Assembly: GCA_030390025.1 (NCBI GenBank)
Contig: CM059426.1
Coordinates: forward strand, 206,274,001 to 206,338,000
Direction: 5' to 3'
Source of the DNA: Squalus acanthias
Lineage: Eukaryota
DNA: 64,000 nt
In this document: positions 7,737 through 7,774 of the stretch, piece by piece
Layout: each line of letters opens with the position of its first letter
Numbering within the stretch: the stretch's first letter is position 1
The notes under the pieces: generated by a model
Databases searched by the model: none
Seen by the model: the letters and a program-made list of their open reading frames with translations, nothing else
Told to the model about the DNA's origin: nothing
Program-made: the position numbers and the translations under genes

Positions 7737-7774
7737 TTACCTGACGAAGGAGCGACAGCTCCGAAAGCTTGTAA
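7737..7774 (+). ncRNA. Minimal type-I hammerhead ribozyme motif (PLE family A)
   Basis: TTAC-CTGACGA-A-GGAGC-GACA-GCTCC-GAAA-GCTT-GTAA. Palindromic AGCU stem III; predicted cleavage after 7770. Confidence 0.82.

Follow-up and report, generated by a model that had tools for sequence, protein, structure and literature searches.

The stretch of DNA analyzed here, referred to as the window, covers 64,000 nt of the Squalus acanthias genome and carries four hammerhead ribozyme motifs, all of which were found at the positions given in the initial annotation (Table 1). A 13-nt pattern spanning the core and stem II matches the window four times, against 0.06 matches expected from 100 shuffles. The motifs contain the core boxes of the minimal hammerheads of Penelope-like elements (PLEs), namely, CUGANGA, GAAA, and an NUH site, and the predicted cut is correctly placed, given the U at H17 of the 7737 copy. 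This copy also has an extra A after its CUGACGA box, absent from the earlier description, and its monomer fold retains stems I and II (z -3.1). Searching with the Rfam hammerhead models (release 15), which had been proposed as a check, yielded zero hammerhead matches even at an E value of ≤1. The motifs had been presented as four copies; they stand as motifs but not as independent ones, since those at 7171 and 7737 lie on 184-nt inverted arms with 100% identity and hence belong to one of only three insertions. The window thus holds three independent intact motifs and, in addition, a truncated fifth copy. Same-strand tandem hammerhead pairs among the window copies number zero, so that none of these hammerheads should be able to dimerize in cis.

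Table 1. Hammerhead motifs and parts of the surrounding insertions in the window.
Feature	Position	Strand	Remarks
Hammerhead	7737-7774	+	minimal type I; predicted cut after 7770
Stem I of 7737 copy	7737-7740/7771-7774	+	4 bp
CUGACGA of 7737 copy	7741-7747	+	followed by extra A at 7748
Stem II of 7737 copy	7749-7753/7758-7762	+	5 bp
GAAA of 7737 copy	7763-7766	+	
AGCU palindrome of 7737 copy	7766-7769	+	H17 = U at 7770
Hammerhead identical to 7737-7774	7171-7208	-	on inverted arm of same insertion
Hammerhead	30687-30724	-	loop AGCA, private G-U in stem I; insertion 30638-30782, 11-bp TSD
Hammerhead	39451-39487	-	loop AGA, H17 = C, 3-bp stem I; solo insertion 39361-39487, tail, 11-bp TSD
Fifth copy	13819-13902	-	truncated within core, lacking its first two bases; 12-bp TSD
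Inverted insertion	7123-7863	.	184-nt arms, 100% identical; 10-bp TSD
TSD, left copy	7113-7122	.	right copy 7864-7873
Inverted 5' arm (pLTR without tail)	7123-7306	-	inverted-repeat comparison
3' end of PLE ORF (GIY-YIG C terminus), 5' truncated	7305-7508	+	match to intact unit L088
TATA-like box in pLTR (putative)	7698-7704	+	TATA-like box also in long copies of family
AATAAA (putative poly(A) signal)	7780-7785	+	9 nt past predicted cut; GU-rich stretch downstream
Tail, about 40 nt	7823-7863	+	ends at ORF start codon in intact copy

Positions 7305 to 7829 of the window are 96.8% identical to an intact unit found elsewhere in the 3.7-Gb genome (L088; G000:C1:5493500-5500500). This unit consists of a pLTR, an 892-aa open reading frame (ORF), and a second pLTR, with a truncated copy in front, and it belongs to the same subfamily as the 7737 copy. 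Its two hammerheads, one per pLTR, flank the ORF at a distance of 3,046 nt. The ORF matches RVT_1 (E = 2.3e-8), while a Pfam search of the same ORF gave no GIY-YIG match and a PDB search returned no relative. The C-terminal motifs VVYLIRC...WYIG and LNRD can be read in its translation, and we take them to mark a GIY-YIG-type domain. Being intact, the ORF is a candidate for biochemistry. The linker between its RT and EN regions, CHGNLCKTC (CX4CXXC), fits the CX2-5CXXC pattern given for Neptune and Nematis (PMC8557442). Judged from its translated sequence, the element is an EN+ PLE with a Neptune-type linker, which would also fit Nematis. The proposal that the motif is a minimal type I hammerhead of a PLE pLTR is supported by the core, the extra base, the palindrome, and the intact pLTR-ORF-pLTR unit.

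The copies show the EN+ PLE hallmarks of partial tandem arrangement, an inverted 5' arm, and a one-sided tail. The tail of L088 terminates at the ATG of the ORF, and copies of the element have two fixed 3' ends, one per arm, at the end of the pLTR and at the end of the tail. Exactly one arm carries the tail in 225 of 229 inverted pairs. One-arm tails that end at the ATG fit two internal RT starts, one per target strand, as shown in vitro for the Poseidon element of Anolis (PMC11167929). The AATAAA that follows the cut is present in 29 of 29 haplotypes examined. The window copies are best explained as dead, 5'-truncated products of this PLE.

Genome-wide, the exact hammerhead pattern has 31,490 matches, the relaxed pattern has 77,402, and a 23-nt anchor downstream of the hammerhead has 99,980. 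Among the relaxed-pattern matches listed, 7 of 100 belong to a subfamily with a U4C core and a compensatory U-A pair in stem II (e.g., L061:799-838, - strand), which would comprise ~5,000 copies if this share applies genome-wide. U4C lowers activity in vitro yet still supports viroid infectivity (PMC3088659). The family is also present in contigs of three RNA runs, which cannot show ends, strand, or expression; of a fourth run, examined as raw reads, 0 reads were placed on it. The association of minimal hammerheads with PLEs is already published (PMC4209133), and this family is a new instance of it. Our literature searches turned up no paper on a shark family of this hammerhead PLE, with Repbase, Dfam, and most subscription journals outside their scope, and no shark entry was found in the consulted text of PMC4209133 or in its supplement file 2, in keeping with the suggestion that the family may be uncharacterized.

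We parsed 242 of 284 arms as hammerheads, allowing one mismatch per element, in a set partly chosen by hammerhead patterns. Covariation was assessed on 82 arms with native upstream sequence, which yield 17 haplotypes seen at least two times (22 singletons were excluded), some of the doubletons being the two arms of one insertion. Across the 17 haplotypes, 149 of 153 stem cells (97.4%) are paired, compared with 25 to 48% in slid controls. Stem II pairs throughout (100%) and varies by one compensatory C-G/U-A pair and three G-U variants; in stem I, one pair switches between C-G and U-A (10:7), and 4 of the 17 haplotypes do not form the outer pair. None of 500 shuffles reached the percentage paired, whereas 26 reached the count of pairs in which both bases had changed, figures to be read with the kinship of the sequences in mind, which inflates shuffle tests. 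The covariation looked for across family copies is therefore present as two compensatory pairs and three G-U variants, and it stems from few independent events in related sequences.

The recurring core variants in the 82 arms are confined to N7, H17, and U4C, all other core bases being invariant, and U4C co-occurs with the compensatory stem II pair. CUGACGA is kept in the four window motifs, as annotated, but it is not a family invariant, since N7 may be C, G, A, or T. N7 also differs between the arms of one insertion (G versus C) at L114, L163, L312, L124, and L162. The extra A between positions 9 and 10.1 occurs in 242 of 242 parsed arms, and both the G-C identity of the G10.1-C11.1 pair and the AGCU palindrome are invariant (17/17 haplotypes each). 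H17 is mostly U, which is a poorer cleavage site than C. The pLTR downstream is conserved to the same degree as the hammerhead.

The initial annotation held that the hammerheads were under selection in the source elements, and the pairing of 97.4% of stem cells genome-wide, together with the two compensatory pairs, upholds this view. The evidence cited for it was weaker than stated: two of the copies belong to a single insertion, the G-U pair is private to one copy, and some of the loop changes were acquired during individual insertions. Stem I does stay paired, but of the 242 parsed arms, only the one in the window has its G-U variant UCGC/GUGA. The loop of stem II does vary as described; within the AGC group, however, 16 of 58 arm pairs have two different loops, and a linked site distinguishes the arms in only 3 of 58, compared with 29.8 expected under random pairing. 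The variant AGCC is found on both arms of an insertion in 0 of 8 cases, and loop differences in pairs of other subfamilies amount to 3 of 39, each a single substitution. These counts suggest that the 3-nt loop II is a hot spot for insertions made by the RT, so that variation of the loop, taken by itself, says little about selection.

Where the arms end was examined in an unbiased set consisting of the first 100 exact anchors on contig C1, in which arms reaching less than ~20 nt past the anchor are poorly resolved. The predicted cut is crossed by 96 of the 100 arms and is the end point of none; 6 arms stop 7 nt short of C3, and 14 stop somewhere from -9 to -6. Genome-wide, a purine before -7 has 3,909 matches, with 83 G and 17 A per 100 among the matches listed, compared with 844 matches (54 G and 46 A per 100 among those listed) for a purine one base further out. 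No subfamily templates a purine at the position before -7. We examined 91 such junctions. In 75 of them the base is G, which is explicable by the partner arm or the TSD in 41, is not in 22 (a few of these being misclassed mutated arms), and is ambiguous in 12; in the 16 with A, the corresponding numbers are 8, 2, and 6. At L368, both arms have a G-marked end before -7.

A TATA-like box lies ~30 nt upstream of the A at -7, which itself falls inside an initiator-like word. TATA and Inr-like motifs have been reported in pLTRs (PMC3846280), transcription starts in the upstream pLTR (PMC2377424), and an extra 5' G has been taken as the reverse-transcribed cap in L1 and SVA (PMC2912911). The G before -7 is thus likely a copied cap. 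The arms would then be run-offs to a capped 5' end, and their templates would have been uncut. This reading is shown for the CAC/GUG subfamilies only; in the window's own subfamily, the start predicted at -13 was not supported (82 matches, with G about equal to A). A literature search for a cap mark in PLEs found no paper, most subscription journals being outside its scope. At L172 and L319, a cap-proximal arm is joined to a site ~70 nt into the ORF; these are possible template jumps.

The predicted cut site also accumulates ends across the genome. A junction pattern placed at the cut, which captures 3/8 of random junctions, has 379 matches, compared with 100 for a pattern shifted one base downstream (capture also 3/8) and, for patterns shifted upstream (capture 9/16 each), 163 at one base and 136 at three bases. 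After scaling, ~1,010 ends fall at the cut versus 240 to 290 at its neighbors, an about fourfold excess. Microhomology of at least 4 nt is found in 8 of 30 cut-site junctions, and 2 of the 30 are not junctions; microhomology is to be expected here because stem I is self-complementary. Junctions without microhomology number 11 of 30 at the cut, 17 of 30 one base downstream, 7 of 30 one base upstream, and 9 of 30 three bases upstream, which corresponds to ~370 microhomology-free ends at the cut versus 150, 70, and 70, a roughly 2.5- to 5-fold excess by a rough classifier on small samples. Microhomology contributes to the cut-site excess, which could reflect either cutting of a minor share of the templates or RT stalling at helix III. 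With -2.5 kcal/mol, the AGCU helix has little stability, and the catalytic dimer was not among the results of unconstrained cofolding.

Taken together, the motifs are relics of a minimal type I hammerhead in the pLTR of an abundant PLE, conserved in its source elements; we think it likely that this hammerhead marks the start of a capped mRNA and that it cuts only a minority of the copied RNAs. In the main subfamilies, Pol II would start at the initiator-like A ~30 nt after the TATA-like box and 7 nt before CUGA, which would place the hammerhead at the very start of the capped mRNA. RT would start at one internal site for each of the two nicked target strands, read through the intact hammerhead up to the cap, and add a C opposite the cap. 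The two cDNAs would then join head to head, or, alternatively, one cDNA may jump elsewhere on the RNA and give rise to longer copies. Cleavage would require two hammerheads paired via the 4-bp AGCU helix, probably with the help of protein, as for the Anolis carolinensis Poseidon element PAc, and would be slow or late.

Several other explanations deserve consideration. In the model of PMC4209133, the transcript is cut at either end by a hammerhead, the monomer is circularized, and copies derive from religated circles. The tandem hammerheads that flank the ORF and the surplus of cut-site ends agree with this model, and a religated junction would also let arms span the cut site, as 96 of 100 do. 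It does not account for the ~3,200 arms that stop behind a G 7 nt ahead of the core, where a circle would have no end, and the main substrate of Anolis Poseidon is uncut RNA, with hammerhead mutants still inserting (PMC11167929). We therefore regard circles as an improbable source of these copies. It is conceivable, though we give the idea limited credence, that the motif was kept as a structure, either a protein-binding site or a clasp of RNA ends or of two RNAs, that was noncatalytic in vivo, and that cut-site ends are RT stalls or microhomology joins. The abundance of the U4C subfamily with its lowered in vitro activity, the prevalence of U at H17, and the long microhomology in 8 of 30 cut-site junctions point this way, and ends left by an RT stalling at the helix III edge would map to the same position. 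Such a role sits less easily with recurring haplotypes in which the other core bases are invariant while the free positions N7 and H17 vary, with an excess of ends that persists without microhomology by the rough classifier, and with the compatibility of U4C with viroid infectivity (PMC3088659).

The G at -8 could also reflect a microhomology hot spot between two cDNAs rather than a copied cap, given that the partner arm or the TSD has the matching base in 41 of the 75 junctions with G and that several recur at one partner position. We doubt this strongly, as G outnumbers A by 22 to 2 where the base is nontemplated, the G excess is gone one base away, and the TATA-like and initiator-like motifs are correctly spaced. 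Finally, each inverted insertion might derive from two RNAs drawn randomly from a pool, which would account for the loop II differences between arms and for the 7 of 156 pairs that differ at a diagnostic downstream site. In the AGC group, this diagnostic site differs in far fewer pairs than random drawing would produce (3/58 versus 29.8), and the loop differences in other subfamilies are all single substitutions. Random templating by two RNAs was rejected on the former count and is very unlikely indeed; two RNAs from one locus are possible templates.

The preferred reading of capped, mostly uncut templates can be extended into a single scheme, which we put forward only tentatively and consider rather unlikely as a whole. 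The mRNA would start with a hammerhead 7 nt after the cap and end at a poly(A) site just past the downstream hammerhead, so that the two ends form an R repeat. A strong-stop-like cDNA would extend to the cap, AGCU-paired hammerheads would clasp the RNA ends, and a cDNA jump would regenerate the pLTR, the ends at H17 being a fossil of minority cutting in vivo. If true, the junctions would constitute a genome-scale record of the PLE cycle, with a short retrovirus-like R repeat. The role of PLE hammerheads is described as an open question (PMC8557442, PMC11167929), as is pLTR regeneration (PMC2377424). With ~100,000 junctions and an intact ORF, the family allows the start site, the two RT starts, and the cut to be predicted to the base, and its junctions weigh against an obligatory circular-RNA model. 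The motif as such was known before.

Minimal hammerheads of metazoan PLE pLTRs have been described with an extra base, a palindrome, low dimer activity, and opposite-strand pairs (PMC4209133), and the class has been reviewed (PMC6765202). The Squalus family resembles those of PMC4209133 in its type I topology, CUGANGA/GAAA core, extra base between 9 and 10.1, G10.1-C11.1 pair, palindrome for helix III, short helix I, heterogeneous subfamilies, and thousands of solo or opposite-strand copies. It differs from them in having a 5-bp helix II and a U4C subfamily. Counts of ~4,000 in coelacanth and ~9,000 in Xenopus given there compare with the 77,402 pattern matches here, obtained by different search methods. 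PAc likewise combines a pLTR hammerhead, two internal RT starts that bound the tail, inverted insertions, and uncut RNA as the main template (PMC11167929). Unlike PAc, the Squalus element has a CX4CXXC linker of the Neptune/Nematis type; its hammerhead lies wholly upstream of the ATG, at which the tail ends, whereas the ORF of PAc starts in stem II and its tail lies inside the ORF. The cap-derived G seen in the Squalus family is not reported for PAc in the accessible text of that source.

Head-to-head arms, a one-sided tail, a TSD of ~10 bp, and TATA and TCACT in the pLTR are shared with Adineta Pen2a (PMC3846280; PMC8557442, Fig. 2). For Pen2a, a putative promoter and inversion via self-priming on an antisense template have been proposed, whereas the Squalus junctions point to sense, capped templates. 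The type I hammerheads of non-LTR retrozymes, described in a preprint that includes one chondrichthyan (10.64898/2026.07.22.740005), are related to those of PLE pLTRs and resemble ours. Retrozymes form head-to-tail noncoding arrays, whereas the window copies derive from an autonomous PLE, stand singly or inverted, and have TSDs of their own; with tandem noncoding units absent, we rejected their assignment to retrozymes.

The window contains a second PLE family at 53715-55831, with inverted arms at 53715-53874 and 55672-55831 and a frameshifted RT/GIY-YIG ORF at 54172-55405. Its hammerhead at 55731-55765 (+ strand) has CUGAUGA, an extra A, a stem II of AGGUC/GACCU, and an ACGU palindrome, and it is mirrored near 53781-53815. 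A G-rich minisatellite with a period of ~34 nt occupies 9916-11037, and fragments resembling LINEs form long inverted repeats at 1865-2495/6154-6784 and 21740-22846/24737-25830. An abundant SINE-like repeat of ~350 nt is present at 16906-17247, 18258-18624, 26545-27453, and 52642-53008, and the hammerhead insertion at 30638 apparently lies inside a copy of this repeat. Elsewhere in the genome, one inverted junction recurs four times at intervals of 1.5 to 3 kb (L222-L225, L277-L280), a recurrence that reflects tandem amplification of a region carrying a short copy.
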